From Candidatus Omnitrophota bacterium (GTDB lineage Bacteria; Ratteibacteria; UBA8468; B48-G9; DTJG01): 64,000 bases of DNA. The notes under the pieces were generated by a model. That model had not been told where the DNA came from, ran no database searches, and worked only from the letters and a program-made list of their open reading frames with translations. How positions within the stretch are numbered: the stretch's first letter is position 1; every line of letters begins with the position of its first letter. Below are positions 3,162 through 42,699 of the stretch, in pieces. The position numbers and the translations under genes are program-made. The stretch lies in assembly GCA_023818965.1 (NCBI GenBank), contig JAMWCD010000008.1, forward strand, positions 47,086-111,085, read 5' to 3'.

Positions 3162-6100
3162 ATGAAAATCAGGAATTTAATTTTATCACTTGTTTTGACA
3201 GGCATTCTATTTACTCAGTACGCAAACTCAAAGGTAACGACTAATTCTGTAAGGTCATATGTTGTTGCCAATCAGGGAATTCTTCCGAATACAAATAGCG
3301 TTCCGCATTCGCCATACAGTCAGGTAATCGGTAGAAATGCAATTGGTGAGGGATACATTATAATTTTTGGTATGAACCTTGCCTCAGATTCTGGTGCGAC
3401 GAGTCCGCAACGTCTTGTCAGTGTAACATTAACAATGGCGCCAACACCTGGATTTGATGTTGACTCGTCTGTTATTATCGATCGTTCTGGAACAATTCTC
3501 GGTGTTACAGGTGGAGTTGGAACAATAACGATACCTGCCGGACGCAGGCCAATATTACCACCTGATGATACTGGTGGATATGCTGGAGATGATTTTTTTG
3601 TTGCGATAAGAACATCTGATAATTGTCTTGATGGCAGCAGTGCAACTTTTTCTATTCCTGCACTTGGTGTTTCTGTTACTCCTGTTCTTGAAGGTGATGT
3701 AACCTGTCCAGGTGGAACCACTGTGGCAATAACGTGTGAAATGCTTATTGGCGACTTATTGCCTGAAGAATATGATAATGCTCATTCAATAGGAATACCT
3801 CAGTATCCTTCTTATTTTCAGTGGCAGCCAGGAGAAATGATAAGACCAAGATATGACCATATTCCATTTGATTATCAATATGCAATCAGTCCATTGACAT
3901 TGCCTACTGTTCCACTGATTCACAATGTTCCACAGGTTGTTCCCTGGGAGACACCAACAGCAGTTCTCGGAATTGCATGCGCTCAAAGAAATGTTACTCC
4001 GAGTGGGGATCCTGTTCCTGCGATTCAGGACCCAGGTGAAGGATTGAATTCAATTACCTTGACTATTACAGATGTTGGAGATAGTGATTTTGATCCGAAT
4101 AATTTTTTCAGAAATAGAGATATTACTTTTGTTAACCCTGAAAATCCATATTCTATCCCGGGTATCACGCTGTGGAAGGATACCAATAATAATGGAATTT
4201 GGGACCCAGGAGATACATTATTAGATTATCAAATGAGTCCTTTTACTCCAACAGGCAATGTTAGGGAATGGACAGTTTCTCTTTCTCCAGTATTAGGAGA
4301 ACCTGATACTATTGATGACCTCTGGGATGGAACTGGGGGAAAGGGGAAATACGATTATTTTATTGTAATCACAATTGCAAGTTCAAATGATTCAGGTACA
4401 CCCAATGTTTCAATTGGTGGTGACTTCAAAATATGGATACCACGAGGTGGTGTTTTGTTTGGTCCTCTTTCTTTTCCCCAGCGATATGCGGGAATATCTC
4501 AAGGACAGGTAAAAACAACTTATCACAATCTTTATGTTGAAAATATCTGCCAGTCATTTGTTGATCCAACAGATACAGGTGATGCACCTGATTTAACATC
4601 AAATGTGATTCCTGTCTTTGGTTTGAATATTGCTTCAGGACCAGCAAATCTTTTTCCGAATGAATACATACAGAGAGTCAGAATTGACCTTATTGCTTAT
4701 GAAAACATAGACCCTGATGATATCGCTCCATTGCAGGAAAACCAGTACTCTGGAATTACATTATGGCGAGATAACAAAAATCCGCCTGCACAGGTTTCAT
4801 CTGTCATAGCACTTGGCAATTTTGATAGTACCGATACATTTATTCCCTGTAGATTTAGCAGTAATCCATTTGGTCCTTATGATTTCCACTGGGCATCAGA
4901 TGGTTATGACCCATCAGTTGGTGCTTACAGATACCATACATATATGACAACATCAGGTTCTTTAACTGACACGGGCTATGTTTATTTTGATGACATTGAT
5001 CCTGATACTTCTACAGTTCACAGGGGAGATGATTTTTTCATTTGCTTAAGAACAAATAATACCCTTGCTTATGGTTCAAAATTCAGGATTCAGATACCGT
5101 GGAATGAAATCATACTTGAGGGAAGCAAACAAGCCAGGTCAAGTCACGAGTTTTTCTCAACACTTGTCACTGGAAATGTTTTTGCAAAAATCACGGGTCT
5201 TGTCAGTCAGGGAGCAACCATTGGCCCACAGAGTAGTCCAACGCCAGTAATGAAACTACAAATAAATGATAACAATTCAGGAAAAAATCCTTCTTTAACA
5301 GGGCTTACAGTTGAATTTTATAATCGTGGTGGATTTACTCTTGATGACCTTGCTCCATTTACCACGCTTTCTCCGTGGTATGAAGCAGGTACGAACTGGT
5401 ATAATATTACCAACTTCAGTCCTGATGCATTAAAACAATGTGGTGTTGTGATTTACAGGGGAACAGATGCTGGACCTGATTTGAATGACCCTGTGATAAT
5501 CAAAAGATATAAATTTTTAACTTCATCATGGTTTGATACACCCACGGGTTATGTTTTTGAATTTCAAAATCCTGTTTCAATTCCCTGTACTCTTTATGTT
5601 GTCATACGAACCTCATCTTCAATGAGTGCAGGCGATGCATTCAGTGTTGGTATTGTCGGATGGGGAGCAACTCAGATTGATTGGGATACCTGGGCATCAA
5701 GGGCAATTCCTGTTGTTGATAAAAATGGTGTTAAGAGCAATGCCTTTGTCAGAAAGGTCACAGAGCCGTTTAATTCAACGTTAGGTGGCACTCTTGATCT
5801 TTATGCTACACCAGGATTTGATGGAATTACGATCAACTGGGTAAACAGGACAAATGTCACACAAAATGAATTCATCAGTTATGAAATCTGGAGAACAGAT
5901 AGTATCGGTGGTGAAACAGATATAACAAGAATTTCAGTTCCAGCAGGTTGGTCTGCAACTTCATATTTTGAAGCAGTTTCAAGGCAGGGTACAGGTGGAC
6001 TTCTTGAAGGAGTAACTTATAATTATAGATTGGTTATGACTTATTCAAGGGCCGGGACAACTCAGACAGTTGTATCAAACAGGGTTAGTGCGAAAGTGTA

Positions 6101-6791
6101 TGGTTTCCCGTACAATATGAGACCATCAAAACCAACAGCAGTTGCTTCAACAAATGGAATTGCAATCTGGTTCAGGGATAATACTTATGATCCATACAAA
6201 GCAAATAGCTGGAGAATTCAAAGAACAATTTATGGTAGAAATGAGTTCACAGACATTACCACAGTTGATACAATCCCAACATTTTATAATCCATATCTTG
6301 ATAATACTGTTGCTTTTAATGTGATGTACCAGTACAGAGTGATTGCTCAGAGAGATGCCAATTCACCTGGGTCTGGAACTGTTGAATCTTATCCATCAGA
6401 CCCTTCAGACAGAACTGCAATCTATGGTACTGATCCTGGAACAGGTCCTGTAAATACACCAAGCGGTGGAGGTGGTGGATGCTTCATTGCGACTGCTGCC
6501 TTTGGAAGTCCTCTTGCGAAAGAAATTGAAATCTTACGACAGTTCAGGGATAGGATACTACTTGAATTTTCAGCAGGAAGAAAATTTGTTGCATGGTATT
6601 ATAGTCATAGTCCGGTTGTTGCTGATTACATCAAAAAACACTCTGCGTTAAAAATCATTGTAAGAATAACATTGTATCCATTGATTGCATTTGCATGGAT
6701 TGTGCTTCATAAAATTTTCCTTTATTTCACTGTAATTTTGTTGAGTTTGATTTTGTTGTTATTGATGAGAAGAAATTTCCTTCATCTTTGA
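3162..6791 (+). CDS. giant cell-surface protein (about 1209 aa) with FN3-like modules and CFIATAA-type C-terminal domain plus TM helix
   Basis: Long ORF. ATG 3162 is preferred over 3141 because AGGAG lies 8 nt upstream. N-terminal signal peptide. FN3-like 'ITINWVNRTNVTQNEFISYEIWRTD'. C-terminus 'GGGGGCFIATAAFGSPLAKEIEILRQFRDRILL...WYYSHSPVVADYI' followed by a hydrophobic helix. Confidence 0.7.
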   Translation: MKIRNLILSLVLTGILFTQYANSKVTTNSVRSYVVANQGILPNTNSVPHSPYSQVIGRNAIGEGYIIIFGMNLASDSGATSPQRLVSVTLTMAPTPGFDVDSSVIIDRSGTILGVTGGVGTITIPAGRRPILPPDDTGGYAGDDFFVAIRTSDNCLDGSSATFSIPALGVSVTPVLEGDVTCPGGTTVAITCEMLIGDLLPEEYDNAHSIGIPQYPSYFQWQPGEMIRPRYDHIPFDYQYAISPLTLPTVPLIHNVPQVVPWETPTAVLGIACAQRNVTPSGDPVPAIQDPGEGLNSITLTITDVGDSDFDPNNFFRNRDITFVNPENPYSIPGITLWKDTNNNGIWDPGDTLLDYQMSPFTPTGNVREWTVSLSPVLGEPDTIDDLWDGTGGKGKYDYFIVITIASSNDSGTPNVSIGGDFKIWIPRGGVLFGPLSFPQRYAGISQGQVKTTYHNLYVENICQSFVDPTDTGDAPDLTSNVIPVFGLNIASGPANLFPNEYIQRVRIDLIAYENIDPDDIAPLQENQYSGITLWRDNKNPPAQVSSVIALGNFDSTDTFIPCRFSSNPFGPYDFHWASDGYDPSVGAYRYHTYMTTSGSLTDTGYVYFDDIDPDTSTVHRGDDFFICLRTNNTLAYGSKFRIQIPWNEIILEGSKQARSSHEFFSTLVTGNVFAKITGLVSQGATIGPQSSPTPVMKLQINDNNSGKNPSLTGLTVEFYNRGGFTLDDLAPFTTLSPWYEAGTNWYNITNFSPDALKQCGVVIYRGTDAGPDLNDPVIIKRYKFLTSSWFDTPTGYVFEFQNPVSIPCTLYVVIRTSSSMSAGDAFSVGIVGWGATQIDWDTWASRAIPVVDKNGVKSNAFVRKVTEPFNSTLGGTLDLYATPGFDGITINWVNRTNVTQNEFISYEIWRTDSIGGETDITRISVPAGWSATSYFEAVSRQGTGGLLEGVTYNYRLVMTYSRAGTTQTVVSNRVSAKVYGFPYNMRPSKPTAVASTNGIAIWFRDNTYDPYKANSWRIQRTIYGRNEFTDITTVDTIPTFYNPYLDNTVAFNVMYQYRVIAQRDANSPGSGTVESYPSDPSDRTAIYGTDPGTGPVNTPSGGGGGCFIATAAFGSPLAKEIEILRQFRDRILLEFSAGRKFVAWYYSHSPVVADYIKKHSALKIIVRITLYPLIAFAWIVLHKIFLYFTVILLSLILLLLMRRNFLHL

Positions 6792-9176: not shown

Positions 9177-9212
9177 TTGACACCGTCCAATATTTTGATT
9201 ATTATATTGTCA

Positions 9213-9665
9213 ATGGACGAGAATAAAATTGAATTCTATCGCGGAATTCGTTTGGCTGTCGTTATACTTTGTCTTTTCTTTTTTACTCACTCAACAGCAA
9301 TTCAGGGATTTTTGAAACTTCCTGATAATCCTGCCATAAGAAAATTACCTGAAAAATACAGGGGCGGAGAAATTATTGTTGTTACAATCAATGTCAATCC
9401 ATTTCTTCCAGCAGGCACCAAAATCATAGAAAAAGTTCCTGATGGCTGGGACCTTGTTGCAGCAAATCCTCCTCTTGCAGAGCAACCATTTAGAAATATG
9501 TATGTCTGGAAAATTCCCAGAAAGGGAGAAGTGTTGACATCAATAAAATATGCAGTTTCCATTCCACAGGGAAATATTTCAAGGAAGGAATTTACTGGTT
9601 ACATTGATATTGGAAAAAGTATCCGATTAACAATATCAGGAGACAGACACATATGGAGCGAATAA
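9213..9665 (+). CDS. small secreted DUF11-like domain protein
   Basis: The ORF track starts at TTG 9177, but that TTG is the -35 hexamer of a TTGACA-17-TATTAT promoter. ATG 9213 gives 'MDENKIEFYRGIRLAVVILCLFFFTHS'. 'EKVPDGWDLVAANP...YVWKIP...IKYAVSIPQGN...FTG'. Confidence 0.6.
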   Translation: MDENKIEFYRGIRLAVVILCLFFFTHSTAIQGFLKLPDNPAIRKLPEKYRGGEIIVVTINVNPFLPAGTKIIEKVPDGWDLVAANPPLAEQPFRNMYVWKIPRKGEVLTSIKYAVSIPQGNISRKEFTGYIDIGKSIRLTISGDRHIWSE

Positions 9666-10138
9666 AAATTTCAATGTTTGTGATGATGATATTTATTTTT
9701 CTTTCAGGTTGTGTCTCAACTCAGGAGAAAAAAGTTGGTCCAGTTGTGCAGCCAGAAAAAAGCCAATCAAAAAACTTGGAAGTTAAAACAATGATTACCA
9801 CAGCCACAAGATTTTTACCTGAGTTCTGTCAACCAGGTGAAACAATTAAAGTGAAAATTGATATTGTGCCATTAAAACAAACCAATGGTGTTATTGTAAC
9901 TGAAAAAATCCCTGAGGGCTGGAAAATTGTAAAGGCAGAACCTGTAATTTCAAAAGTGATGCCTGATGGTTCATACAAATGGCTTCAATGGGGACAGGAA
10001 GTTACTCCATTTACAATTATCTATGAAGTAAAAGTCCCTGAAACAGCAAAAGGAAAGTATAATTTTGAAGGCACAATCACGACATATCGCGAAGGAGATA
10101 TTGAAATTATTGGTGCAAACTGTATCACAGTGAAATGA
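9653..10138 (+). CDS. lipoprotein with DUF11-like domain
   Basis: Lipobox 'FLSGC'. 'EKIPEGWKIVKAEP...YKWLQWG...IIYEVKVPETAKGKYNFEGTI'. Confidence 0.75.
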   Translation: MERIKISMFVMMIFIFLSGCVSTQEKKVGPVVQPEKSQSKNLEVKTMITTATRFLPEFCQPGETIKVKIDIVPLKQTNGVIVTEKIPEGWKIVKAEPVISKVMPDGSYKWLQWGQEVTPFTIIYEVKVPETAKGKYNFEGTITTYREGDIEIIGANCITVK

Positions 10139-10556: not shown

Positions 10557-13500
10557 ATGAATAAGAAGTTTTTATTTCTACTGTCATTTCTTTCAGGAAT
10601 TTTCCTGACATCCGCTGCATTTGGTGCTAAGCCGAGTCAACCTGGTGTTCTTGGGCACGCAGGAAATACCACAAGTTCTATCACCTGGATTTGGACTGAT
10701 AATTCTAATAATGAACAGGGTTTCAGGTGTTATGAATGGTACTGGGATTCAAATTTGAAAAGATACGTCAGGAGTAATAACCCTGTCTGGTCGGTTAATG
10801 CCAATATTACTTCTTACACAGAAACAGGTCTTGCACCAAATACCCAGTACAGACGAGTGATTGTTGCCTGGAATACTGATGGAGAAAGCCCACAGGCATT
10901 ATATGATTCTACCAGGAATCAATATTATTTCCGTTCTGACCCACCTGATTATCCAAAACCCGACTTTCTTGTCGCTTGTTATACCAGCATTGAGCCACCA
11001 GCAGGTCTTGAATTTGGTCCAAAAGGAGTTAATGAACTGACAGTGAGATTAAAAGACCCTGTTCCATCTAATTTGATGAGTAGTGGTTCTGTTTACGGCT
11101 ATTTCAATCCAAACGATTCAGGCTTCTGGATTGAAGATATAACAATTGGCACACATAAATCCGGTTGGTGGAAGGATAACAATGACTATGACCCATTAGG
11201 ACCGATGACAGGTTTTCCCCTTGGTGCAATAAATTGGGACAAATACCTTAAAAATGGTCCTGCCAGTTATAACTCTTCAACAGGACAATATTCTTCAAAC
11301 CACGTTTGGAAATACTGGTGTGTTGAAAACCTTGACCCTAATACTCCTTATAGTTTCAGGGCAAAGGCAAGAAATGGTGATATGGATGAAACTGCATGGT
11401 GTCCGCCGAGTCAGGAAGTATGGACTTTACCAAAGAGACCCCTTATTTCTTGCGACCAGGAAATTAATAAGTGTTATGACCCTGGTACAAAATTTACTTT
11501 TACAAGTTTAATCCCATTTGGAATTGGTTCTGTTGACCACTATCATATTAAATGGACAACAGACCAAACAGCAAACCCTTCTGAAGAAGACACAAAGTGG
11601 GGGACAGGTCTCTGGATTATTACTGAAAACCGGCTTTCTGATTTTTATCTTGTTATAAAATCTCATAATTATCAGCACGAAGAAACAATAACCTATGACA
11701 TTGATGGTTCTACGGTTCTCGGTTTTACCTATGTTGTAAACAGGACAACAGGAGCCACGCGCACGGATTATAACTATCCGGTTCGCAATGAAAATATTGT
11801 TACTATAGGTCCATTCAAAATTGGTTATGAAGTAGAAGGAAAAGTAACAATCAGTGGTGGAACTGGTTCATATACTGATGTTGTTGTTCATTGTGGTGGT
11901 TACACAACAAAATGCGATTCCGAAGGCAAATATAAATTTAAGAACTTACCACCTGGTACCTATGACCTGTATCCTGAACTACCTGGTTATAGAATTGCCT
12001 GGCCTGTTGATAATGCAGGGCACTATTCAGTAAAGGTTGGACCTGCCGCCACAGGTAAGGACTTTACTCTTGCTTACAAAAACACCTATACCATTGCAGG
12101 AAAAGTAACTCTTGTTGGTGGCTCTGGTGATGTAAAAGGTGTTACAATCACCTGCGGAAGTTATACCCCTGTTCATCCTGATGCAAATGGTAATTTCTAC
12201 ATTCCTGGTGTTTTTGCAGGAACATATAAATTAAAGGCAACATTTTCAGATGCGGATTATACTTTAACTTTCCCTGCCAATGGAGAATACACTGTTTCTG
12301 TTGGTCCTGATGCCACAGGTAAGGATTTTGTTTTCACATATACTGCAGGTGTTGATGTTGCGAAAATTTCAGGAACAGTAAAACTTATTGGTGGCTCAGG
12401 AGACCCAACAAAAGCAACTGTTTACTGTAAAAATTTAACAACAAACATTACTGGTACGACTGCTCCTAAGAACACAGGTTCTTATTCCTTCAAAGACCTT
12501 CTAAAAACCAATTCTTATGAACTCTGGGTTAAAATGGATGGCTACAAAACAACATTACCTGTTTCAGGTAAATACAGGATAGATAACCTTCAAACAGATA
12601 CACAACTGGATTTTGAAATGACCCCTATTTCCTATTACAGCATTAGCGGAAAGGTTCAAGTTTCTGAAGGGGTCATCACACCACCTGATACAAAGGTTCA
12701 CTGCGATTGTCTCACAGATACAAGCATTGCCTTTGCTCTTAATCCTGACAATGATGGTACATACAATTTTAGCAGTGTCCCTGAAGGTAGTTACAGGGTC
12801 TGGCTTGAAATTCCATCCGGCTATAAAATCACAAATCCTGCTTCAATCAAATATGAGCCAATTGTTGTTGGTCCTGATGCAAGCGGCAAAGATTTTCTTG
12901 TTGAACCAATAGCGAAATATTCTCTTTCAGGAAAAGTTACCCTTTTCGGTGGTACCTGCACTCCACGTGAGGCACTTGTTGTCTGCAGTTATTACAACAG
13001 CATAAAAAAGGAATACATTACTTTTACCACTGTTCCTGATGCTAATGGCAATTACAAATTTATCAATCTTGTACCAGCCAGTTACACTGTTTCAGTAAGT
13101 TTAACAGGTTATAATCCTGTATCTCCAGCAAAAGGTTATTATACAGTCACAATTGTCAACATGGATATTACAGGAAAGGACTTTTATCTTGCGAGTTATG
13201 CCATTAAAGGAACAGTGACAATTGCAACCCCGGGTCCTGAAAAAATAACAGATGTCACAATTATTTGTTCAGCCACAAGTAATAATCCTGATATTCCGAA
13301 TGTTTATGTTGTTACACATCCTGATTCTAATGGAAACTATGCTTTCTATAATCTTGTTCCCTCAGCAAAACTTGCAAATCCTGCTGGTGGAAATCCAGTA
13401 CCTTACAGGGTTGAAGTAAAACTTGCTGGCTATGGCTGTATTTCTCCGGCAAGCGGTTATTATGATGTAACAATCACGAACAAAGATGAGATAAGAAATT

Positions 13501-16277
13501 TCATCCTTGCAACATACTCAATTTCAGGAAAAATTTCCCTTTATTCAGGTTCAGCTGATTTAACAAAGGCAACTGTTACTGCTGCAAAACTTGATAAACA
13601 GGGTGGAAATGAGATTGACTGGATTGTTGTTAATCCTGATGCCAATGGAAATTACAAGTTTGATAGAATTGTTCCAGGGAGTTATTACAGAGTCAGGGTA
13701 AAACTGGATGGATTTTATTCTATAAGACCAAATGAACAGGGTTCAAACTGGGGTTATGAACGTTACATCCCTCCATCACAAACAAATCTTGATTTTATTA
13801 TGATGCCAACAACGGCAACTGCGCCGACCTACACAATTTCAGGAAGGGTTACTGTCAATGGAGGAACAATAACACCTGACAAAGTAATGGTTCATTGCGG
13901 GGACTTAAAGACATACCCGAATTCCCTTGGTGACTATTATTTCAAAAATCTGAATTTAGGAACATATGATGTTTGGGTTGAACGACTTGGTTATAAAACA
14001 ATCAATCCAGCAACAAATGGTGGTCATTACTATGTCACAGTTGATGGTTCTGTTCCTGAAATAACAGGGAAGGATTTTACTATTATTCCTGAACCAGTTC
14101 CCACTTATAAAATCAGTGGGACTGTGACACTTGTTGGTGGAAGTGGCAAAATTACAGATGTTACTGTTCATTGCAACACTCTCACTGCAACACCTGATAA
14201 TCAGGGGAAATACGAGTTTAAAAATCTTCCAGCAGGCAGTTATGAACTCTGGGTAGAACTTGAAAAATACGAGACATCAAATCCAGGTGGTTCTGGAAGA
14301 CAAACAGTAAAACTTTATGACAGGGATATTGCAGGTGTTGATTTTACATTGAAGGCAATCCCAACATATTCAATTTCAGGCACAGTCACAATCACTGATG
14401 GCGATGTTACACAGGTCAGCATCATTTGTAGTTCAGGTGCCACAGTTCATCCTGATATTTACGGAAGATACAGAATAGATGAACTTCTTGCAGGTAATTA
14501 CACTGTGCATGCTGAAATGCCAGGATTTATTGTGATAAAACCCACAAACAATCTTTACAGTGTAAAACTTGGTCCAAATGCAGACAAATGTGATTTTACT
14601 CTTGTTAAATATTACACAATTTCAGGAAGAATAACACTTAGTGGTGGAACAGGCGATGTCAGGAATGTTGTTGTTAAATGTGGAACGAGTACCTTGAAGG
14701 CAACCCCGGTTGTTTATGTGACCGCCACTGGCGACAAATACCACAGGGGCAACTGTTCCTACTTATGGGGCAGCAAAATCGAGAAGACGCTCGAAGAGGC
14801 TATCAGTGAGGGCTATACACCGTGTTCTGTCTGCAAGCCGTTAACCATTGACGAGGGTAAGTATGAATTCACCTATCTTCTTCCTGGAATTTATGATGTC
14901 TCTGCAACCCTTGATGGCTATGCTGTTGATAATCCTGCTTCTGGTTCATACAAAATTACCCTTGGTCCTGATGCAAACCTGACAAACTTCAATTTCATTG
15001 CAACAACATTACTCTCTGTCTCAGGAAAAGTAACAATTATGAATGGACCAGGGCAGATGAGTGATGTTAGTGTTTCAATTGCAGGGCTTACAACAAAACC
15101 GGATGCAAATGGAAACTATACAATTTCAGGAATTTCACCAGGAACCTATGATTTAACAGCACAACTTACTGATTACACAGTTGTTGCTCCATCAGCAGGC
15201 AAACACAGAATTACATTCACCAGAAGCAACCTGACAAATTATAACTTTTCTCTTTATGCTTATTCTGTTTCTGGTAAAGTAAAAATCATTGGTAATGCAG
15301 ATGTAGCAAATGTTGTTATTTCCTGTGGAGGTAAAACAACACATCCTGATGCCAGTGGAAACTATCAGATAATACCTCTTGCACCTGGTAATTATGAAGT
15401 TTTAGCAACATTAACAAACTATTCCACTGTCTTACCATCAGGAGACGGAAAATATAAAGTGACCCTTGGTCCTGATGCAACAAACAAAAACTTTACCTTA
15501 GCGACTTACTCAATTTCAGGAAATGTTTCATTCTATGCGGCAACTGGAAATGTTACAAATGTTGTTATTACTTTGAATGGTCCTGTGAACAGGACAACAA
15601 CTCCTGATTCAAAGGGGAATTATCAATTTACAGAAGTTCCTGGCGGTGTATATGAATTAACTGCAAATTTATCAGGATATACTGTTATCAGTCCATCAGG
15701 TGGAAAATACAATCTTACATTAAATTCCAATCTCACAGGTAAAAACTTTGTCCTGACAACATATTCTGTATCCGGGAAAATCAATCTTGCTGGAAGTCCA
15801 GTGCCAGTGACAAATGTAACAGTAACACTGACTGGTCCCACAGGAACAATTAACACTTCTCCTGATGAAAAAGGGTATTACAATTTTTCCACTTTGCCAG
15901 CAGGCGAATATACAGTGAGTGCTTCACTTTCCAACCACACTGTTGTTTCTCCTTCCAATGGCTCATTCACATTTAAGATACCACCATCAGGCACAGGAAA
16001 AGATTTTTCCATTGTTGCCTACTCAATTTCAGGTTCAGTAAGTGTTTATGATGCCAGTGGACCAGCAGGAACAATTGTTTACTGTCAGGGACCAATCGGT
16101 ACTCAACAGATTACAGTTGATGCCACAGGCAAATTTAAATTTTATCCACTTCCACGAGGCAACTATAGATTATGGGCTGAAAAACCTGGTTATAAAGTAA
16201 CATATCCATCTGACGGAGAATATAATTTCACGCTGGATAGCTGGGCAACAAGAAACTTTGTTTTGAAATTAAAATAA
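10557..16277 (+). CDS. giant secreted protein (1906 aa): N-terminal FN3-like region followed by about 19 tandem CarboxypepD_reg/Big-like beta-sandwich repeats
   Basis: Signal peptide, and SD 'caggagg' upstream. The unit 'Y[ST]ISG[KT]VT..GG.G....V.V.C.......PD.NGNY.F.NL.PG.Y.[LV]...L.GY' recurs about every 90 aa. One unit carries a Cys/His insertion (see findings). Confidence 0.85.
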   Translation: MNKKFLFLLSFLSGIFLTSAAFGAKPSQPGVLGHAGNTTSSITWIWTDNSNNEQGFRCYEWYWDSNLKRYVRSNNPVWSVNANITSYTETGLAPNTQYRRVIVAWNTDGESPQALYDSTRNQYYFRSDPPDYPKPDFLVACYTSIEPPAGLEFGPKGVNELTVRLKDPVPSNLMSSGSVYGYFNPNDSGFWIEDITIGTHKSGWWKDNNDYDPLGPMTGFPLGAINWDKYLKNGPASYNSSTGQYSSNHVWKYWCVENLDPNTPYSFRAKARNGDMDETAWCPPSQEVWTLPKRPLISCDQEINKCYDPGTKFTFTSLIPFGIGSVDHYHIKWTTDQTANPSEEDTKWGTGLWIITENRLSDFYLVIKSHNYQHEETITYDIDGSTVLGFTYVVNRTTGATRTDYNYPVRNENIVTIGPFKIGYEVEGKVTISGGTGSYTDVVVHCGGYTTKCDSEGKYKFKNLPPGTYDLYPELPGYRIAWPVDNAGHYSVKVGPAATGKDFTLAYKNTYTIAGKVTLVGGSGDVKGVTITCGSYTPVHPDANGNFYIPGVFAGTYKLKATFSDADYTLTFPANGEYTVSVGPDATGKDFVFTYTAGVDVAKISGTVKLIGGSGDPTKATVYCKNLTTNITGTTAPKNTGSYSFKDLLKTNSYELWVKMDGYKTTLPVSGKYRIDNLQTDTQLDFEMTPISYYSISGKVQVSEGVITPPDTKVHCDCLTDTSIAFALNPDNDGTYNFSSVPEGSYRVWLEIPSGYKITNPASIKYEPIVVGPDASGKDFLVEPIAKYSLSGKVTLFGGTCTPREALVVCSYYNSIKKEYITFTTVPDANGNYKFINLVPASYTVSVSLTGYNPVSPAKGYYTVTIVNMDITGKDFYLASYAIKGTVTIATPGPEKITDVTIICSATSNNPDIPNVYVVTHPDSNGNYAFYNLVPSAKLANPAGGNPVPYRVEVKLAGYGCISPASGYYDVTITNKDEIRNFILATYSISGKISLYSGSADLTKATVTAAKLDKQGGNEIDWIVVNPDANGNYKFDRIVPGSYYRVRVKLDGFYSIRPNEQGSNWGYERYIPPSQTNLDFIMMPTTATAPTYTISGRVTVNGGTITPDKVMVHCGDLKTYPNSLGDYYFKNLNLGTYDVWVERLGYKTINPATNGGHYYVTVDGSVPEITGKDFTIIPEPVPTYKISGTVTLVGGSGKITDVTVHCNTLTATPDNQGKYEFKNLPAGSYELWVELEKYETSNPGGSGRQTVKLYDRDIAGVDFTLKAIPTYSISGTVTITDGDVTQVSIICSSGATVHPDIYGRYRIDELLAGNYTVHAEMPGFIVIKPTNNLYSVKLGPNADKCDFTLVKYYTISGRITLSGGTGDVRNVVVKCGTSTLKATPVVYVTATGDKYHRGNCSYLWGSKIEKTLEEAISEGYTPCSVCKPLTIDEGKYEFTYLLPGIYDVSATLDGYAVDNPASGSYKITLGPDANLTNFNFIATTLLSVSGKVTIMNGPGQMSDVSVSIAGLTTKPDANGNYTISGISPGTYDLTAQLTDYTVVAPSAGKHRITFTRSNLTNYNFSLYAYSVSGKVKIIGNADVANVVISCGGKTTHPDASGNYQIIPLAPGNYEVLATLTNYSTVLPSGDGKYKVTLGPDATNKNFTLATYSISGNVSFYAATGNVTNVVITLNGPVNRTTTPDSKGNYQFTEVPGGVYELTANLSGYTVISPSGGKYNLTLNSNLTGKNFVLTTYSVSGKINLAGSPVPVTNVTVTLTGPTGTINTSPDEKGYYNFSTLPAGEYTVSASLSNHTVVSPSNGSFTFKIPPSGTGKDFSIVAYSISGSVSVYDASGPAGTIVYCQGPIGTQQITVDATGKFKFYPLPRGNYRLWAEKPGYKVTYPSDGEYNFTLDSWATRNFVLKLK

Positions 16278-16670
16278 ACCGGCTCTTTGACATTTATTGA
16301 TAGTTTCCCCCTTTTTCAACCTTCGCTCGTCTCCCCCTTTTGCAAAGGGGGACTAAGGGGGATTTAAGGTAGTTTCTCCCTTTTCCAAAGGGAGATGCAA
16401 GAGGGATTTTTATTTTTATGAAGAATCCACCCCCACCCTCCTTTAAAAAAGGAGTGAGAGAAAATTTCCCCCTTTAATAAATCCCTCCTCCGTCCTCCCC
16501 CTTTTTCAAAGGGGGACGAAGGGGGATTTTAAATGAGGGGGATTTAAGGTAGTTTCTCCCTTTTTTAAAGGGAGATGAAAGAGGGATTTTTATCCCCAGG
16601 GAAAATCCACCCCAACCCTCCTTTTTCAAAGGAGGGAGACCAGGAGGAAGCGAGGGGAGGTAGTACAGGA
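16278..16670. repeat. palindromic repeat array (F1, F2, F3, repeated twice over)
   Basis: Two successive F1-F2-F3 blocks. The ORF-track start of the next gene at 16575 lies inside this array. Confidence 0.8.
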
Positions 16671-16712
16671 TATGAAGTTCAGAAATTCATGATTTTACAG
16701 GAGACACCCAAT

Positions 16713-17447
16713 ATGAATTTACCAAAACCTAAAAGTGCATTCACACTTATTGAACTTCTCGTGGTCATAGCAATTATCGCGATTCTTGCTGCCATGCTAC
16801 TGCCCGCGCTATCAAAAGCAAGAGCAAGGGCTCATCAGGCAGTTTGCATGAGCAATCTCAAGCAACTCGGAAACTGCTTTTTTATGTACGCTGATGACTG
16901 GGATGGCTTTTTTCCTAAGGATGCAACAATGTCCAATGTCTGGTTTACACAGATTGCTCTTTACATCCCGCAGACAAGAACCGGCTTTGTTGCGTACAGC
17001 AGTATGTATGACCCAACAGAAGACAACTGGGTTTCAGGAATTTTGAGATGCCCTGCAGAGCCAAAGAGTTCTGCGTTCTGGAATGTTGACTGGAGCGGTA
17101 TGGAGCCAGCAGTGAACAAGGTTGCGACATGGTATGGAATGAATGGTTATCTCTGTGGAACAAGTTCAGACCCTGATTTAAGATACTGGCCCAAACTCTC
17201 AAGAATTAGAAATCCTTCAGCCACGTTTTTACTTTGCGATATGAAACCAGGACCACAACTTGATAATTCTGATTACTACGCAAGAATCAATTTCAATCAT
17301 CCTGAAATGGGCATTGCTTACAGGCACTCTGGTTCAGCCAGTTTCCTTTTTTGTGACGGACATGTAGAAGCAAGAACAAAACAGCAGGTTCCTGTGTGGT
17401 ATTCAGGAACAACTGATCCATTCTGGTTCAGTGGCCAAACGCAATAA
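16713..17447 (+). CDS. prepilin-type N-terminal cleavage/methylation domain protein with C-terminal H-X9-DG (DUF1559-like) motif
   Basis: '[31 protein letters not shown]' is a class III signal peptide and pilin helix. The C-terminus '[24 protein letters not shown]' has the spacing of the H-X9-DG family that is expanded in Planctomycetes and Verrucomicrobia. Start set at ATG 16713; the 16575 start would read through repeats. Confidence 0.75.
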
Positions 17448-22983: not shown

Positions 22984-25900
22984 ATGAGTGTGAAAATAAT
23001 GAAATTTTTAACAATAGGACTTCTTACAATTTTTGGACTTGTAATTATTGCGAATGCAGCCAGTGTTTCAGGTCCAGGAACAATAAGAGTCAGGGCAGGT
23101 GGAACAGGAAGTTTTTCTTCAAACACATACACTGCGACTTATGGAACTGGAGACAGTGGTGATTTTATATGGACAGAAACAGGGACTATTCCTGGAGGGT
23201 TCATTTCAATTTCACGGAATCCTCCATCGCCTTTTTCAACAGCGACCCTTAGTGTTTCTGCGTTTTCAGGGACTACGCCTGGTTCTTATGATATCCGTGT
23301 GAATGCCTATCCTGCTACTGGTACTGCTGGAACACGTGCTGTTACAATTATTGTTGTTGAAGGTCTTGGAAGTATTTCTCCAACGTCATTGCCTGATGGA
23401 AAGGAAAATACGTCGGTCAATGTTCAATTTACTGTTTCAAGTGGCACAGGTAATTACGAGTGGAGTGTTTCAGGTGCGCCATCTGGTGTGACAATGAATA
23501 GTTCAACAGGACTTTTGTCAGGTGCACCATTACAGGGTACTGCTGGCAATTATAATTTGACTATTTTTGTGACTGATAATACTGATCCTGTTCAGAGTAC
23601 ACAGATTTCAATTCCGTGGAGAATTTTACCTGCGTATATTCCACTGTCAAATCAGGGACAGATTTGTTATGTGAAGAACATTGTCAGGGATACAAATGGC
23701 ATTATTACAAGCACTGGCGACCTTTATGTGAAGAATTTACAGACAGGAGTTGAAAGAAGAATTACAAATTACTCAACAACTGGAACAGGAGCAATTTTAA
23801 ATCCAATGCTCACTCCTGATGGTTCAAAGGTTCTTTATACATATAGCCCCAATCCATCAACAACAAATTTCAGGATTTATCTTGTCAGTACACTGTCAAC
23901 TGTTTCAGGAACAAACCAGGGTTTGATTTTGAAGAAAAATAATCAGGAAGCAATACCATCTACAATGAATACAAAGTATGCTGCAATCTCTCCTGATTAC
24001 AATGGTTCTTCTGGTCTTATTGTTTTTACTTACGAAAAAAGTGATAGGTCAGAACTATGGCTTTACAATTTTTTCACTGAAAGTTTGAGTCAGTTGAGGT
24101 CAGAAGCAAATATGTACATCAGGCATCCTGTATTTTTGAATACAGGATCCATCGCATTTGTTGGCGTGAAAAATGGAGTGCAGGATATCTATGTGATTGA
24201 TACAAATGGAACAAATTACAGGAAACTTACCACAAATGTACCCATAAGTCCTGAATACGATAGAATCCAGAGCGGGTTTAGAAATCCGAATTTGACAAAT
24301 CCACTTTTGATTTATGGCAAAAGATATTATGATAGCCAGAGGTACAAATACAGCGACTGGGATGTTTATGTTTCTGAACTGGATATGACTTCAGGAACCC
24401 TTACTGAATACAGGGTAACTGAGACACCGGATATTGATGAATTCAGCGCTGCGTTTTTTGGCGATTCAACAGAAAGGGACTTTGTTACACTTGTTAGAGA
24501 CAGTGGACAGATGTTTTATGAAGCAGCAGTTATTCCAGGAATACGCAATGTCTGGCAGACAAACTATGACACAGTTACACCAGCCAATAGCAATGCTTTG
24601 AAGCAGGAAAGGACTTCAGAAAGTAGTCATACAGGGCTTGTTAACTGGTCTCCACTTCCACCATCAGAAGTGCCTGAAGCAATTGCAATTGAAAATACAC
24701 GGCTTGTTTATATCAAACAGGCAGGTTCGTATAATGAAGTTTTCAGGTCTGACTGGACTGGTTCTGGTTTTGATACAACTGGAACACAATTAACTCCTTC
24801 TGGCTCTGACGCACATAAATCAAATCCATCAATCTCAAGAAATGGTGGACTTATTTCATTTACAATGGGCTCAATACCAAAGGATGTTTACAGAATAAAT
24901 AACGATGGTTCATCTCTTACAAGATTTGCAGGTCAATATCCCTATAATACCGATTATTCAACACTTTCACCTGATGGAAACTGGATTGTTTATGTTAGAA
25001 AAGAAACACCCAACGGCTATGCCATTTATGCAAAACCATCAACGAACGATTATTCAGGACAGGAAACAGCGATAGTAACAGGAATTTCTGCCAGTGAGAT
25101 TGATGCACCATCTTTTAATCCTGATATGACAAAAATTATTTATGCAGCGCGAGACCCTGGCGGATATTTTGATATTTACTATGTACCTGTGACAGTTGAT
25201 ACCATCAATAAAAAAATCACACCACTTTCTTCGCCTATAAACCTTACAAACACAGAATTTATTAATGAAAGAATGCCTTCATTCTCAAACACAGGCACAA
25301 AAATCATCTATTGTTCTGACAAAGAACTTACACCCGAAGAATATGAAATTTACACAATGAATGTCAGTGGTTCAGGAATTGAAAAGGTTGTTTCAGGACC
25401 AGGTCATATGTGGCCCATTTACAGTCCTGTTTCTGATACTGCAGCAGGTACTGATGTAATCGGGTATATTGAAAATGGCGAAATTATCTATGCGACACTT
25501 TCACGCACAGCACCACCTGGTTCTCCTTCAGGACAGAATCCAGTTTCAAATGTCATAAACACAGGAATTTCTGTACCAGCAGGTTATGAAAGATTTGGTT
25601 GGGGTAGGAAAAGAGGGGATGGAACAATTATTGCAACAAGAACTCTTCCAGCATCACTTGCAGCAGGCCAGCAAATAGTATACCAGATTTCTGTTGATGT
25701 TGATGAGGCAAAAATACCAAATTCATTTATCATCAATGAAACATTTTCAGACCAGTTTACTGGGGTTAGTGTCCTTGTTGATGGAACAACTGCAAACACA
25801 ACAATTTATCAATATCCGTCAGCAGGGCTTCAGACATTGAAACTTACCTTTATGAATGGGATGAATGGCGGAGTAAAAGACCATGTGATACGGATAACAA

Positions 25901-26313
25901 TGACAACACCATCTGCCACTGGTACTCAGGCATTTGTTGGCAACATCAATTATTCAATTGATGGTATTCCAAGGACAGAAACAATCAGTGGGAATGGTTC
26001 AGTAAGTGTTGATAAACCATATATGCCTGTTGATATTTATGATGCAAATGGCTTGATTTCTGCTGATGGAATTATACAGGACTTTGATTTACTCTATGCC
26101 ATAGATGCTTGGGCAAGGGATGCTCAATTGACAGGTTACGGCATTGTCTGGCCACAAAATCTTGCGAACTGGGACAAAATTCTGATTGGTTTTGCTGGCA
26201 ATCCTGGAATTATTCCAATATGGGCAAATTCAACATATCAGGGTGGTTATACTTATGATGCATCAAATCCTGGCGCTGCATATGAGATGTACTGGAAATC
26301 TGGGAATTTCTAA
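22984..26313 (+). CDS. secreted giant protein (about 1109 aa): putative Ig (He_PIG-like) domains, TolB-like PD40 propeller, C-terminal DUF11-like domain and 'DFDLLYAIDAWARD' tail
   Basis: Signal peptide 'MKFLTIGLLTIFGLVIIANA'. The start may be GTG 22990, which sits 6 nt after the SD 'caggag'. 'PSGVTMNSSTGLLSGAPLQGTAGNYNLTIFVTD' is Ig-like. Blocks such as 'QGQICYVKNIVRDTNGIITSTGDLYVKNLQTG' align with the 18675 protein. Confidence 0.8.
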   Translation: MSVKIMKFLTIGLLTIFGLVIIANAASVSGPGTIRVRAGGTGSFSSNTYTATYGTGDSGDFIWTETGTIPGGFISISRNPPSPFSTATLSVSAFSGTTPGSYDIRVNAYPATGTAGTRAVTIIVVEGLGSISPTSLPDGKENTSVNVQFTVSSGTGNYEWSVSGAPSGVTMNSSTGLLSGAPLQGTAGNYNLTIFVTDNTDPVQSTQISIPWRILPAYIPLSNQGQICYVKNIVRDTNGIITSTGDLYVKNLQTGVERRITNYSTTGTGAILNPMLTPDGSKVLYTYSPNPSTTNFRIYLVSTLSTVSGTNQGLILKKNNQEAIPSTMNTKYAAISPDYNGSSGLIVFTYEKSDRSELWLYNFFTESLSQLRSEANMYIRHPVFLNTGSIAFVGVKNGVQDIYVIDTNGTNYRKLTTNVPISPEYDRIQSGFRNPNLTNPLLIYGKRYYDSQRYKYSDWDVYVSELDMTSGTLTEYRVTETPDIDEFSAAFFGDSTERDFVTLVRDSGQMFYEAAVIPGIRNVWQTNYDTVTPANSNALKQERTSESSHTGLVNWSPLPPSEVPEAIAIENTRLVYIKQAGSYNEVFRSDWTGSGFDTTGTQLTPSGSDAHKSNPSISRNGGLISFTMGSIPKDVYRINNDGSSLTRFAGQYPYNTDYSTLSPDGNWIVYVRKETPNGYAIYAKPSTNDYSGQETAIVTGISASEIDAPSFNPDMTKIIYAARDPGGYFDIYYVPVTVDTINKKITPLSSPINLTNTEFINERMPSFSNTGTKIIYCSDKELTPEEYEIYTMNVSGSGIEKVVSGPGHMWPIYSPVSDTAAGTDVIGYIENGEIIYATLSRTAPPGSPSGQNPVSNVINTGISVPAGYERFGWGRKRGDGTIIATRTLPASLAAGQQIVYQISVDVDEAKIPNSFIINETFSDQFTGVSVLVDGTTANTTIYQYPSAGLQTLKLTFMNGMNGGVKDHVIRITMTTPSATGTQAFVGNINYSIDGIPRTETISGNGSVSVDKPYMPVDIYDANGLISADGIIQDFDLLYAIDAWARDAQLTGYGIVWPQNLANWDKILIGFAGNPGIIPIWANSTYQGGYTYDASNPGAAYEMYWKSGNF

Positions 26314-36951: not shown

Positions 36952-37777
36952 ATTTTTCAAAAAATCTGTTGAGAAAAACAGGGTCTGTCATGCAATCATT
37001 ATCTATGGTGGTTCATATGAAACAAGAAGCCATGCATCCCTGATTGCTGCAAAAATTCTTGAATGTCAGAACTCACCTGAAATTTGCGGAAAATGTTATT
37101 CATGTAGAACTATTGAATCAAAAAATTATCCTGACCTTCACATCATAAAACCAGAGAAAAGAAATCTATCCATTGATGAGGTCCGCTCGATTAAAGAACA
37201 GATGTATATAAAGCCATATCTTGGTAGATACAGAATTTTTGTCATTGAATCTGACTGGATGCAGGCACCTGCTGCAAACAGTTTATTGAAAATTCTTGAA
37301 GAACCACCTGCCTATGGAATTATAATAATTCTCACCCGGAATAATAAAAATTTTGTTCCTACAATCGTTTCCCGTGCAATAAATTTGAGATTGAACATTG
37401 AAATTGAAAATCTTGAGAAAGATAATTTTGATAGGATTCAAAACCTTATTAACTCAACAAATCAAAAGAAACTTGCACAGATGATTGAGATAGCAGGCGA
37501 AATCGCAAAAGATTCAACAAGGGAAGAGATTGAAGAAATCTTTGATACAATGATTTTATCAGCAAGGCACAACCTCCTTGAAAATATTGCAATTGGCGAA
37601 TCACCGTTGCACCAGAGTCAATCATCGGGTATAATTAAACTGGATGACTATAGGATACTAAGCAAAATTCTTGATAAAAGAGTTTATCTGAAGTTCAATG
37701 TAAACATCAGAATGTTTCTGGAAGTTCTGGCATTGTATATTTCTGTGCCGAAGTGGCGGAACTGGCAGACGCGCTAG
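36929..37777 (+). CDS. holB: DNA polymerase III delta-prime subunit
   Basis: 'HAIIIYGG', a zinc module 'CGKCYSCRTIESKNYPDLHII', and 'ILEEPP'. The 3' end overlaps tRNA-Leu by 31 nt. Confidence 0.8.
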   Translation: MNIKEITEFFKKSVEKNRVCHAIIIYGGSYETRSHASLIAAKILECQNSPEICGKCYSCRTIESKNYPDLHIIKPEKRNLSIDEVRSIKEQMYIKPYLGRYRIFVIESDWMQAPAANSLLKILEEPPAYGIIIILTRNNKNFVPTIVSRAINLRLNIEIENLEKDNFDRIQNLINSTNQKKLAQMIEIAGEIAKDSTREEIEEIFDTMILSARHNLLENIAIGESPLHQSQSSGIIKLDDYRILSKILDKRVYLKFNVNIRMFLEVLALYISVPKWRNWQTR

Positions 37778-37830
37778 GTTCAGGACCTAGTGGTGGCAAC
37801 GCCGTCGGGGTTCAAATCCCCGCTTCGGCA
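37747..37830 (+). tRNA. tRNA-Leu (anticodon CAG), class II with long variable arm
   Basis: Acceptor GCCGAAG/CTTCGGC. Anticodon arm CTAGG-TTCAGGA-CCTAG. T-arm GGGG-TTCAAAT-CCCC. Discriminator A. CCA is not encoded. Confidence 0.85.
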
Positions 37831-41751: not shown

Positions 41752-42210
41752 ATGAAACAACAAATCAAAATTGAAAATAAAAAGGCATTTCACGATTATC
41801 ACATCCTTGAGACGATTGAGGCAGGTATTGAATTGAAAGGATCTGAAGTAAAATCAATCAGGCAGGGTAGTGTAAGTTTAAGGGATGCTTATGCAGCATT
41901 TGATGGTAACCAGTTGTACCTTTATAAGATGCATATTGCACAGTATCCGGGTTCATTTGAGAAAATTGACCCCATGAGGAAAAGAAGGCTTCTTCTTCAT
42001 AAACATCAACTTCTTAGATGGCAGAAAAGAGTTGAAGAAAAAGGATTGACAATAGTACCCCTTTCACTGTATACTAATAATAAGGGAATTATCAAGGTAA
42101 ACATAGCACTTGTTAAGGGTAAAAAGCTCTTTGATAAACGTCGAGACATAAAGGAAAAGGAGACCAGAAGACAAATTGAGAGACAAAAAAGAAATATGGG
42201 GGCGAAATAG
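41752..42210 (+). CDS. smpB: SsrA-binding protein
   Basis: 'IENKKAFHDYHILETIEAGIELKGSEVKSIR...LRDAYAAFDGNQLYL...IAQY...DPMRKRRLLLHKHQL'. The ATG at 41752 is preferred. Confidence 0.9.
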   Translation: MKQQIKIENKKAFHDYHILETIEAGIELKGSEVKSIRQGSVSLRDAYAAFDGNQLYLYKMHIAQYPGSFEKIDPMRKRRLLLHKHQLLRWQKRVEEKGLTIVPLSLYTNNKGIIKVNIALVKGKKLFDKRRDIKEKETRRQIERQKRNMGAK

Positions 42211-42545
42211 GTCTCGACAGGGGGCAGGAGTGAGAAAAGCTGCCGACCGAGTCGCCGGAGGCTCGTTAAAAACCGGCAAAAAGACAGCTGCCACAACAGC
42301 TAATTGTCTGGCTGCATAAATTTGCAGCCACCTGACAGAATGCCTGCCCTCGGCATTCTGACCCAGGTCGGATGAGGGCTCGTTTCAGTTTCCGTCGCCT
42401 CAGGAAACTGAAATTAAAAACAATGGGGCAGGTGCTCCAGTATCCTGTCTCGGGGAGACTGGAGACACTTGATAAAACCGGGACTATGTCGGTAGATGCT
42501 TTTCTACTTCCCCTCTGGACGCGGGGGCAGTACCCGCCGCCTCCA
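42198..42545 (+). ncRNA. ssrA: tmRNA (ssrA), one-piece; tag reading frame ends ...A-N-C-L-A-A-stop
   Basis: 5' 'GGGGGCGAAATAGGTCTCGACAGGGGG' is comparable to E. coli 'GGGGCUGAUUCUGGAUUCGACGGG'. 3' 'GGACGCGGG-GGCAGTA-CCCGC-CGCCTCC-A' is comparable to E. coli 'GGACGCGGG-UUCAACU-CCCGC-CAGCUCC-A'. The acceptor helix has a G3:U wobble. The internal ORF 'GCT AAT TGT CTG GCT GCA TAA' follows 'gttaaaaaccggcaaaaag'. It lies immediately downstream of smpB. Confidence 0.8.
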
Positions 42546-42699
42546 CTGTTGTAAGATATTGTTCTTTGGAAAATTTGATTTACTGGTGTACGTAGCGTCC
42601 AGAGAAGGGTTCGGGAAACTCGTTTCCCGATTAATGCATTTGGGGGATGACTTTGAGAAGGGGGAATCGCCCCCTTCTCAAGGAGCGATAGCGACGGAC

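Follow-up and report, generated by a model that had tools for sequence, protein, structure and literature searches.

The stretch of DNA analysed here, hereafter referred to as the window, spans 64 kb of contig JAMWCD010000008.1 (assembly GCA_023818965.1). It carries a giant gene encoding a repeat protein of 1906 amino acids, and this study concerns a single repeat of that protein, unit 11, which is predicted to house a small zinc-ribbon module within a loop, encoded by DNA with markedly different codon usage. The NCBI entry for the protein comes from a metagenome-assembled genome named Candidatus Omnitrophica, and its relatives are named Ratteibacteria; Ratteibacteria genomes frequently carry the label Omnitrophica (bioRxiv preprint).

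The protein possesses a signal peptide-like N-terminus, an FN3 domain and a variable region, followed by tandem transthyretin-like beta-sandwich repeats of the CarboxypepD_reg/SdrD_B-like kind. The Pfam family PF13620 (CarboxypepD_reg) matches it along 13 stretches, with 254 bits against a gathering cut-off of 32.3 (E=8e-77), and the SdrD_B model matches with E=4e-51. Counting by motif gives 16 beta-sandwich units, rather than the approximately 19 reported in the initial annotation. Pfam and NCBIfam scans identified no helix-turn-helix (HTH) or methyltransferase domain in the protein, and an Rfam scan of the gene gave no match.

The fold matches and the tandem, rod-like arrangement resemble the stalk repeats of Gram-positive adhesins and pilins and other transthyretin-like repeats (SdrD B, CnaB, the regulatory domain of carboxypeptidase D). 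However, the host belongs to Ratteibacteria/Omnitrophota, phyla of the PVC supergroup (PMC preprint), its protein is without an LPXTG anchor, and one of its repeats bears a nested zinc ribbon, as predicted below. Another large repeat surface protein, the Kustd1514-family S-layer glycoprotein of anammox bacteria (NF052345), shows weak similarity in the sandwich repeats (E=2.6e-13), but the 1906-residue protein scores 48.3 bits where the cut-off is 1400, and is not a member of that family.

Unit 11 departs from the repeat pattern, as had been read from the sequence initially: it runs ...VVVKCGTSTLKATPVVYVTATGDKYHRGNCSYLWGSKIEKTLEEAISEGYTPCSVCKPLTIDEGKYEF..., where the other units show ...C..TTKPDANGNY.F. 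Its sandwich has Foldseek matches that include SdrD B, Cpa, CnaB/pilins and the transthyretin-like domain of carboxypeptidase D. The coordinates of the features discussed are given in Table 1.

Table 1. Features of the giant gene and its eleventh repeat, in window positions
Feature	Position	Strand	Details
Giant repeat-protein gene	10557..16277	+	1906 amino acids; predicted secreted/surface; identical to NCBI MCM8806107.1
Dinucleotide variant	14576..14577	+	AA in three filled, TG in two empty alleles (Asn/Asp); sole flanking site fully linked to the filled state
Repeat unit 11, host beta-sandwich of the insert	14604..15008	+	Residues 1350-1484; motif count, AlphaFold2, Foldseek
Putative imported recombination tract	14684..14861	+	Third base of the Gly1376 codon and codons T1377-K1435; GC3 0.66; replaces NLTTKPDANGN
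Predicted ADA_N-like zinc-ribbon mini-domain	14709..14840	+	Residues V1385-P1428 (44 residues): VVYVTATGDKYHRGNCSYLWGSKIEKTLEEAISEGYTPCSVCKP
First predicted ligand pair	14742..14756	+	His1396 (14742-14744) and Cys1400 (14754-14756); align to Ada Cys38 and Cys42; invariant in family
Second predicted ligand pair	14823..14834	+	Cys1423 and Cys1426 (PCSVC); align to Ada Cys69 and Cys72; invariant in family

The nested mini-domain and its family

The initial annotation had recognized an H-x3-C...C-x2-C knuckle in this peptide and likened it to Ada-type zinc modules, and both observations hold. The knuckle corresponds to H1396-x3-C1400...C1423-x2-C1426, and the motif and its DNA are found as a single copy in the window. 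A HMMER scan of 1.84 billion representative proteins returned 5,908 proteins that match the mini-domain at E<=1e-3. The best 149 of these 5,908 matches contain 465 copies, mostly 2–13 in tandem; in 115 of the 149, no more than 10 residues separate the last copy from the C-terminus, and 107 possess a signal- or transmembrane (TM)-like N-terminus. Among 135 matches, the partner domains are staphylococcal nuclease (31), metallo-beta-lactamase (MBL)/ComEC-type (3) and PLD (1), and proteins with the motif in plasmid and phage records are annotated as ComEC/Rec2, MBL-fold or thermonuclease proteins. The His/Cys/Cys/Cys ligands are invariant in 68–378 aligned instances and 99–100% conserved over the 465 copies, and a Val, an Ala and a Pro are near-invariant in the family.

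In a search of the PDB with a 68-instance family profile, the N-terminal domain of E. coli Ada was the sole match at E<=0.002 (0.0011–0.002, near 1e-3). Aligning the family profile to Ada residues 1–92 with hhalign gave a probability of 95.5% (E=1.5e-8) over 45 columns (Ada 28–76), with the ligands in register, and PF02805 is matched by 61 of 135 family members. The Ada link needed a profile: a phmmer search of the PDB with the segment itself found only a chance thioesterase match (E=0.13). A homologue search with a 52-residue segment, repeated with a four-sequence profile of filled units, had no match; for the 52-residue segment this reflects a word-index limit and not absence, since the identical protein sits in the searched collection.

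Structure prediction led to the same family. An AlphaFold2 model of a 49-residue segment (predicted local distance difference test, pLDDT, 88.9) has the elements E-E-H-E-H, with the small beta-sheet and the short C-terminal helix bearing the second ligand pair that the fold calls for. Ada chains are the only PDB matches of any weight in Foldseek, namely 1u8b (TM-score 0.67, root-mean-square deviation (RMSD) 2.5 Å, E=1.3; such E-values are not significant for the Ada chains, the fold being so small) and 1wpk (TM-score 0.53), with a probability of 0.02 for the third match. Predicted phage proteins in BFVD annotated as “Metal binding domain of Ada” are closer to the mini-domain, with TM-scores of 0.84–0.90 and RMSDs of 0.4–0.9 Å. 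The 135-residue unit 11, sandwich and mini-domain together, is modeled with a pLDDT of 95.5 and a predicted TM-score of 0.83. The AlphaFold2 unit model shows the mini-domain in the hairpin loop of unit 11 (normally ..TTKPDANGN..), its first strand extending a strand of the sandwich.

Ligand register, family profile and predicted fold together show the peptide to be a single ADA_N-like zinc ribbon, with a predicted zinc site formed by the four ligands listed in Table 1. A 2025 ECOD paper defines the ADA_N-like domains (an ECOD X-group) as a group that is mostly C-terminal and is found in secreted ComEC and Cwp27-type proteins (PMC12353581). The module is therefore of a known kind, and its nesting is the unusual part. 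It shares the small fold and the ligand register with the Ada N-terminal zinc domain (PDB 1adn/1eyf/1u8b/1wpk), PF02805 and PF19746 (DUF6233), and the C-terminal domains of secreted ComEC/MBL proteins, thermonucleases and C. difficile Cwp27-type proteins belong to the same family (PMC12353581). In contrast to Ada, which has a Cys4 ligand set, the window copy has His-Cys3, Cys38 being replaced by His in every family member; it is neutral where Ada is basic, and has no HTH or methyltransferase partner. It also differs from other ADA_N-like domains, which are normally terminal or in tandem, in being nested within the loop of another domain.

NCBIfam holds no model for the mini-domain. One relative (P0012, residues 46–117) has a weak match (E=0.006) to NF051448, “50S ribosomal protein L17, sunset domain variant”, and according to ECOD ribosomal protein L4 ends in a C-terminal domain of the ADA_N-like kind. 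Both hint that the NCBI “sunset domain” and the ADA_N-like domain may be the same fold; a literature search returned only an unrelated paper for “sunset domain” and nothing for DUF6233.

Codon usage and the filled and empty alleles

The claim of foreign codon usage is borne out statistically. The 47 codons first delimited have a G+C content at third codon positions (GC3) of 0.68, the highest in the gene, against a gene mean of 0.266 (sliding standard deviation (SD) 0.086, z=4.8). I scanned all 27 open reading frames (ORFs) of at least 250 residues in the window, whose GC3 ranges from 0.22 to 0.40, in segments of 59 codons. The highest value (0.661) among the 14,042 segments starts exactly at codon 1377 (mean 0.28, SD 0.073); the gene-wide value is 0.27. 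The same 59 codons, T1377-K1435, form the segment of lowest codon adaptation. When the same amino acids were resampled synonymously with the gene's own usage, the expected GC3 was 0.237 ± 0.053 (z=8.0 for the observed 0.661), and none of 100,000 simulations reached it. The anomalous stretch is thus real, but the limits first given for it (14718–14856) are too narrow, its actual extent being slightly wider (Table 1).

The window's lineage provides alleles both with and without the tract. Orthologues were grouped into 90% clusters, and in that of the window (cluster 4) three alleles are filled, with an insert designated type A, and two are empty. An independent Logan assembly (SRR30574052) yields a 6-kb contig identical to the window allele; a 97.4%-identical gene from JGI 3300005573 carries the same tract with one synonymous change inside it; and in the filled allele of ENA ERZ27247228 two neighbouring bases of the tract are changed, with an E-to-K substitution resulting from one of the changes. 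The empty alleles of the same species, P0175 (1862 residues, ERZ27247713) and P0173 (JGI 3300010938), read ...VVVKCGNLTTKPDANGNYEF... at the loop. Filled and empty DNA agree as far as ...AAATGTGG and once more from TATGAATTC... onward; the interval comprises 11 native codons in the empty alleles and 59 GC-rich codons in the filled ones. The flanks show about 2 mismatches per 240 nucleotides (nt) on each side, and are 98–100% identical to the empty allele. The tract itself differs within cluster 4 at 1–2 sites in 178 nt, against ~1.3% in the flanks, and it occurs on differing flanking haplotypes. The filled allele is real and not a chimera, the tract recurring in independent samples, and the presence in this species of empty alleles whose flanks are almost the same bears out the recent horizontal acquisition into the loop that had been proposed.

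The anomalous composition is not confined to the mini-domain. Residues inside the tract that are homologous to the loop (TSTLKATP.., ..DEGK; ..LTIDEGK), 15 extra codons, also use GC-ending codons, with a GC3 of 0.67.

The same loop was compared in other lineages. Five full-length orthologues (P0151 and P0153–P0156, 50–67% identity) have an empty loop. In P0152, at 62% identity, the site is occupied by a module that is longer and diverged, ..VYVAWNSYNDPTENKKNYKYHYSDQC...GGLCSFC.., designated type B. Cluster 3 comprises three filled alleles (type B) and no empty one; cluster 5 has one filled (type B, P0179) and two empty (including P0151); cluster 6 has two filled (type A, P0193 and P0185) and five empty (P0154 and four others); clusters 7–9 are empty. 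Outside the tract, which in P0179 is ~420 nt long and spans the whole repeat unit, P0179 and P0151 are free of mismatches over kilobases, save 7 positions close to the 5' end and another three immediately downstream of the tract. Tract lengths vary by lineage (59, 68 in cluster 6, and 139 codons), and those of clusters 5 and 6 take in 24–80 codons of the sandwich. The GC3 of the tracts is 0.53–0.66 (hosts, 0.27–0.34), and the sandwich- or loop-homologous codons inside them have values of 0.67, 0.54 and 0.49 (hosts, 0.27–0.31).

The gene tree pairs clusters 4 and 5, and clusters 3 and 9, each with 100% bootstrap, whereas type A occurs in 4 and 6 and type B in 3 and 5. The distribution of insert types thus conflicts with the gene tree, and is therefore horizontal rather than vertical. 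Between the window and P0193, nucleotide identity is 63% for the type A copies and 67% for the host genes.

Near relatives of the mini-domain are small secreted single-domain proteins: P0148 (67% identical, sharing the string YLWGSKIE) and P0138 (71% identical). The closest free-standing relative, P0138, has a TM segment, a coiled coil and a C-terminal knuckle, and its gene lies in a phage tail module directly upstream of the tape-measure gene, on a 30% GC contig (L036 3001–3657; also L037 and L038; 19 contigs). A scan of viral contigs for the type A tract was empty.

Routes by which the module may have arrived

These comparisons argue strongly, at the level of sequence, for arrival by short-patch homologous recombination with an unsampled, GC-richer homologue, whereas de novo insertion is disfavoured. 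In this reading, 177 nt (59 codons) copied from a diverged and already filled homologue of higher GC content took the place of 33 nt (11 codons) of the native loop. The crossovers would have fallen within conserved codons, those of K-C-G / G-T-G-D to the left and of Y-E-F to the right. The donor would be a homologue because the beta-sandwich codons inside the tracts are also high in GC3. Similar imports would have occurred independently in at least three species-level lineages, with differing tract lengths and two module types. The donors were probably distinct, unsampled, GC-richer homologues, since the type A copies are so far apart and no other sampled orthologue is nearer than the host gene to the sandwich codons of the P0179 tract. 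The first filled unit presumably arose in an unsampled lineage, by illegitimate fusion with a small secreted ADA_N-like gene like those of P0148 and P0138.

Mosaic surface-protein genes shaped by short-patch recombination include Neisseria porin, opa and pilE, pneumococcal PspA and the C. difficile slpA cassettes. The likeness lies in a sharply bounded foreign tract within a near-identical allele, in coexisting alleles, and in other parts of the gene being mosaic too. In the present case, however, alleles would trade a complete folded domain for its absence at a single loop, they would do so across lineages that are 54–70% identical in this protein, and no silent donor locus was found in the window or in the type A scans described below.

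The initial annotation had read the segment literally as an insertion. The acquisition stands, but a de novo, illegitimate insertion of a fragment of a free-standing ADA_N-like gene in the window's own lineage is improbable, and allelic replacement from a filled homologue is favoured. The closest relatives are indeed small secreted single-domain proteins, and such an event is needed once somewhere to make the first filled allele. However, the foreign codon usage extends over the 15 additional loop-homologous codons, the tracts of clusters 5 and 6 hold codons of the sandwich itself, and four lineages all have this one loop of this one repeat filled, which is improbable for independent illegitimate events. 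The use of one site in four lineages could also suggest an ancient, vertically inherited insertion, of which the empty alleles are repeated precise losses, and the type A copies are nearly as diverged as their host genes. After so much divergence, an ancestral segment should nonetheless show host codon usage, which none of the tracts does; the empty loops resemble those of orthologues and paralogous repeats, with native codons; the types are distributed at odds with the gene tree; and within one species the alleles with and without the module scarcely differ beyond sharp tracts that also alter flanking residues. I therefore give this history very little credence. An assembly chimera, that is, a GC-richer fragment of another organism spliced into a repeat, would be suspected in a repeat-rich gene with an abrupt step in composition, the usual setting of such artefacts. 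Its probability is practically nil: the insert is in frame and has a confident nested fold, the tract was recovered in three samples with differing flanking haplotypes and point differences of its own, and analogous filled alleles come from other lineages and assemblers. It is the independent samples carrying the tract that exclude it.

Two further routes involve a resident or mobile cassette. Intragenomic switching from a silent filled copy, as in pilE/pilS or vlsE, would account for P0179 and P0151 differing almost solely by the tract, and the divergence of tracts between lineages roughly follows that of the hosts. The window, however, contains no second copy, and scans with type A peptide patterns, covering JGI metagenome contigs and a single genome for each GTDB species, find the tract only inside the expressed gene (L013 and L014), with no other Ratteibacteria/Omnitrophota genome in those scans carrying it. 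A resident silent copy should moreover not hold a GC3 of 0.66 in a genome of 39% GC, and such switching appears quite unlikely. The size of the insert (~45 residues), its distinct composition, in-frame position and variable presence would also befit a selfish in-frame mobile element, similar to the Rickettsia palindromic element or a mini-intein. This is barely credible, as neither inverted nor direct repeats mark the tract ends (14684 and 14861), intein and nuclease motifs are absent, the segment is single-copy in the window, the tract ends vary by lineage, and the peptide is a member of a large family of protein domains, whose metal ligands are invariant and whose fold is modeled with confidence.

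Several observations weigh against parts of the favoured explanation. The window copy scores below the PF02805 gathering score of 23 (18.3 bits for the isolated segment and 12.1 in the whole protein), and its match covers only the C-terminal half (profile positions 46–64). The net charges of four nested copies are 0, -1, 0 and -2, compared with +6 for Ada and a family median of +3, which counts against DNA binding. A donor was not found at the nucleotide level, the nearest relatives of the mini-domain being only 62–67% identical, and for the sandwich codons of the P0179 tract no other sampled orthologue comes nearer than its own host (0.35–0.57). The differences in the tract within cluster 4 are too few to date the import. 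Finally, GC-biased gene conversion at a recombination hot spot could explain part of the high GC3, in place of donor composition. With these points taken into account, the explanation as a whole, comprising the identity of the module, its short-patch import from a filled homologue and its role as a surface knob, is in my judgement probable.

Surroundings of the gene and possible role of the module

Synteny around the giant gene is kept in most contigs examined. Upstream, two small overlapping paralogous ORFs (9177–9665 and 9653–10138; 162 and 161 residues, no Pfam match) are present in all of them. Downstream, most have a protein with a prepilin-type N_methyl segment and DUF1559 (16575–17447), the contig of P0175 (L007) instead having a 1209-residue ORF. 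In cluster 5, both filled and empty contigs carry a Y1 (IS200-like, PF01797) transposase gene directly upstream of the giant gene (L006 2092–2763, L009 592–1263), which is absent at the corresponding position in the window. The window contains three other very long ORFs, at 57981–63998 (more than 2006 residues, running to the window end), 3162–6788 (1209 residues, no Pfam match) and 22984–26310 (1109 residues); the knuckle motif is in none of the three. Giant proteins of the secreted type abound at this locus. Across the window, Rfam matched only a tmRNA gene (42198–42548, 149 bits) and a tRNA gene (37747–37830).

Within the giant gene, a hypervariable mosaic block lies at 10870–11760 (residues ~105–402). 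The window allele and the 97.4%-identical allele P0013 differ at 39 nt in gene positions 900–1200, in clustered amino acid runs, with few differences elsewhere; the pattern suggests further recombination patches in this N-terminal block. Near the N-terminus (10690–10720, residues ~48–52), a 12-nt indel separates alleles of the same species, TDNSNNEQ in the window corresponding to TDATPNSTNDEQ in P0175.

Turning to function, the predicted His-Cys3 site would bind one Zn2+ and hold together a compact beta-beta-alpha knob. With its termini adjacent and one strand continuing a strand of the sandwich, such a knob would plug into the hairpin and leave the sandwich undisturbed, projecting sideways from the repeat rod on the cell surface. 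A zinc-stabilised knob on the side of the rod is what the models point to. It cannot act as a methyl acceptor in the manner of Ada, because the nucleophile Cys38 is a His and there is no HTH or AGT domain. My best guess is that it is an accessory surface knob, which supplies a further binding site or alters what phages, prey or hosts encounter on the cell. I favour a generic role of this kind, as an added binding site or variable knob under diversifying selection, and the mosaic N-terminal region of the gene is consistent with it. By analogy with nuclease-associated relatives, the nested copies might instead bind nucleic acids or other polyanions, which I regard as possible but doubtful; DNA binding by analogy with Ada in particular is downgraded because the nested copies are neutral or acidic.

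More speculatively, the alleles may represent a balanced presence/absence polymorphism that extends across lineages, in which recombination over very short homeologous patches repeatedly carries a folded zinc-ribbon “epitope cassette” from one species-level lineage of Ratteibacteria/Omnitrophota to another, and frequency-dependent selection on the cell surface maintains it at an intermediate frequency. I consider this a tentative proposal, somewhat unlikely as it stands. The selective agents may be phage adsorption, attachment to prey or hosts, or capture of extracellular DNA. If true, it would provide domain-level surface variation that needs no dedicated switching machinery.

The ADA_N-like family is already known; what is new is a nested, loop-borne presence/absence polymorphism carried by recombination. 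The locus offers an unusually clean natural case of domain insertion in progress, with the codon usage of the putative donor still visible, and a natural pair of proteins with and without the module in which its role can be addressed. For the ADA_N-like family it adds a new context, internal and predicted to be surface-displayed, in an uncultivated phylum of the PVC supergroup, and it flags the giant protein as a likely target of diversifying selection in organisms without cultured representatives. Should the proposed import be correct, homologous recombination among diverged orthologues can place a complete folded domain into a loop of a repeat protein, which would provide a route to nested architectures other than illegitimate fusion.

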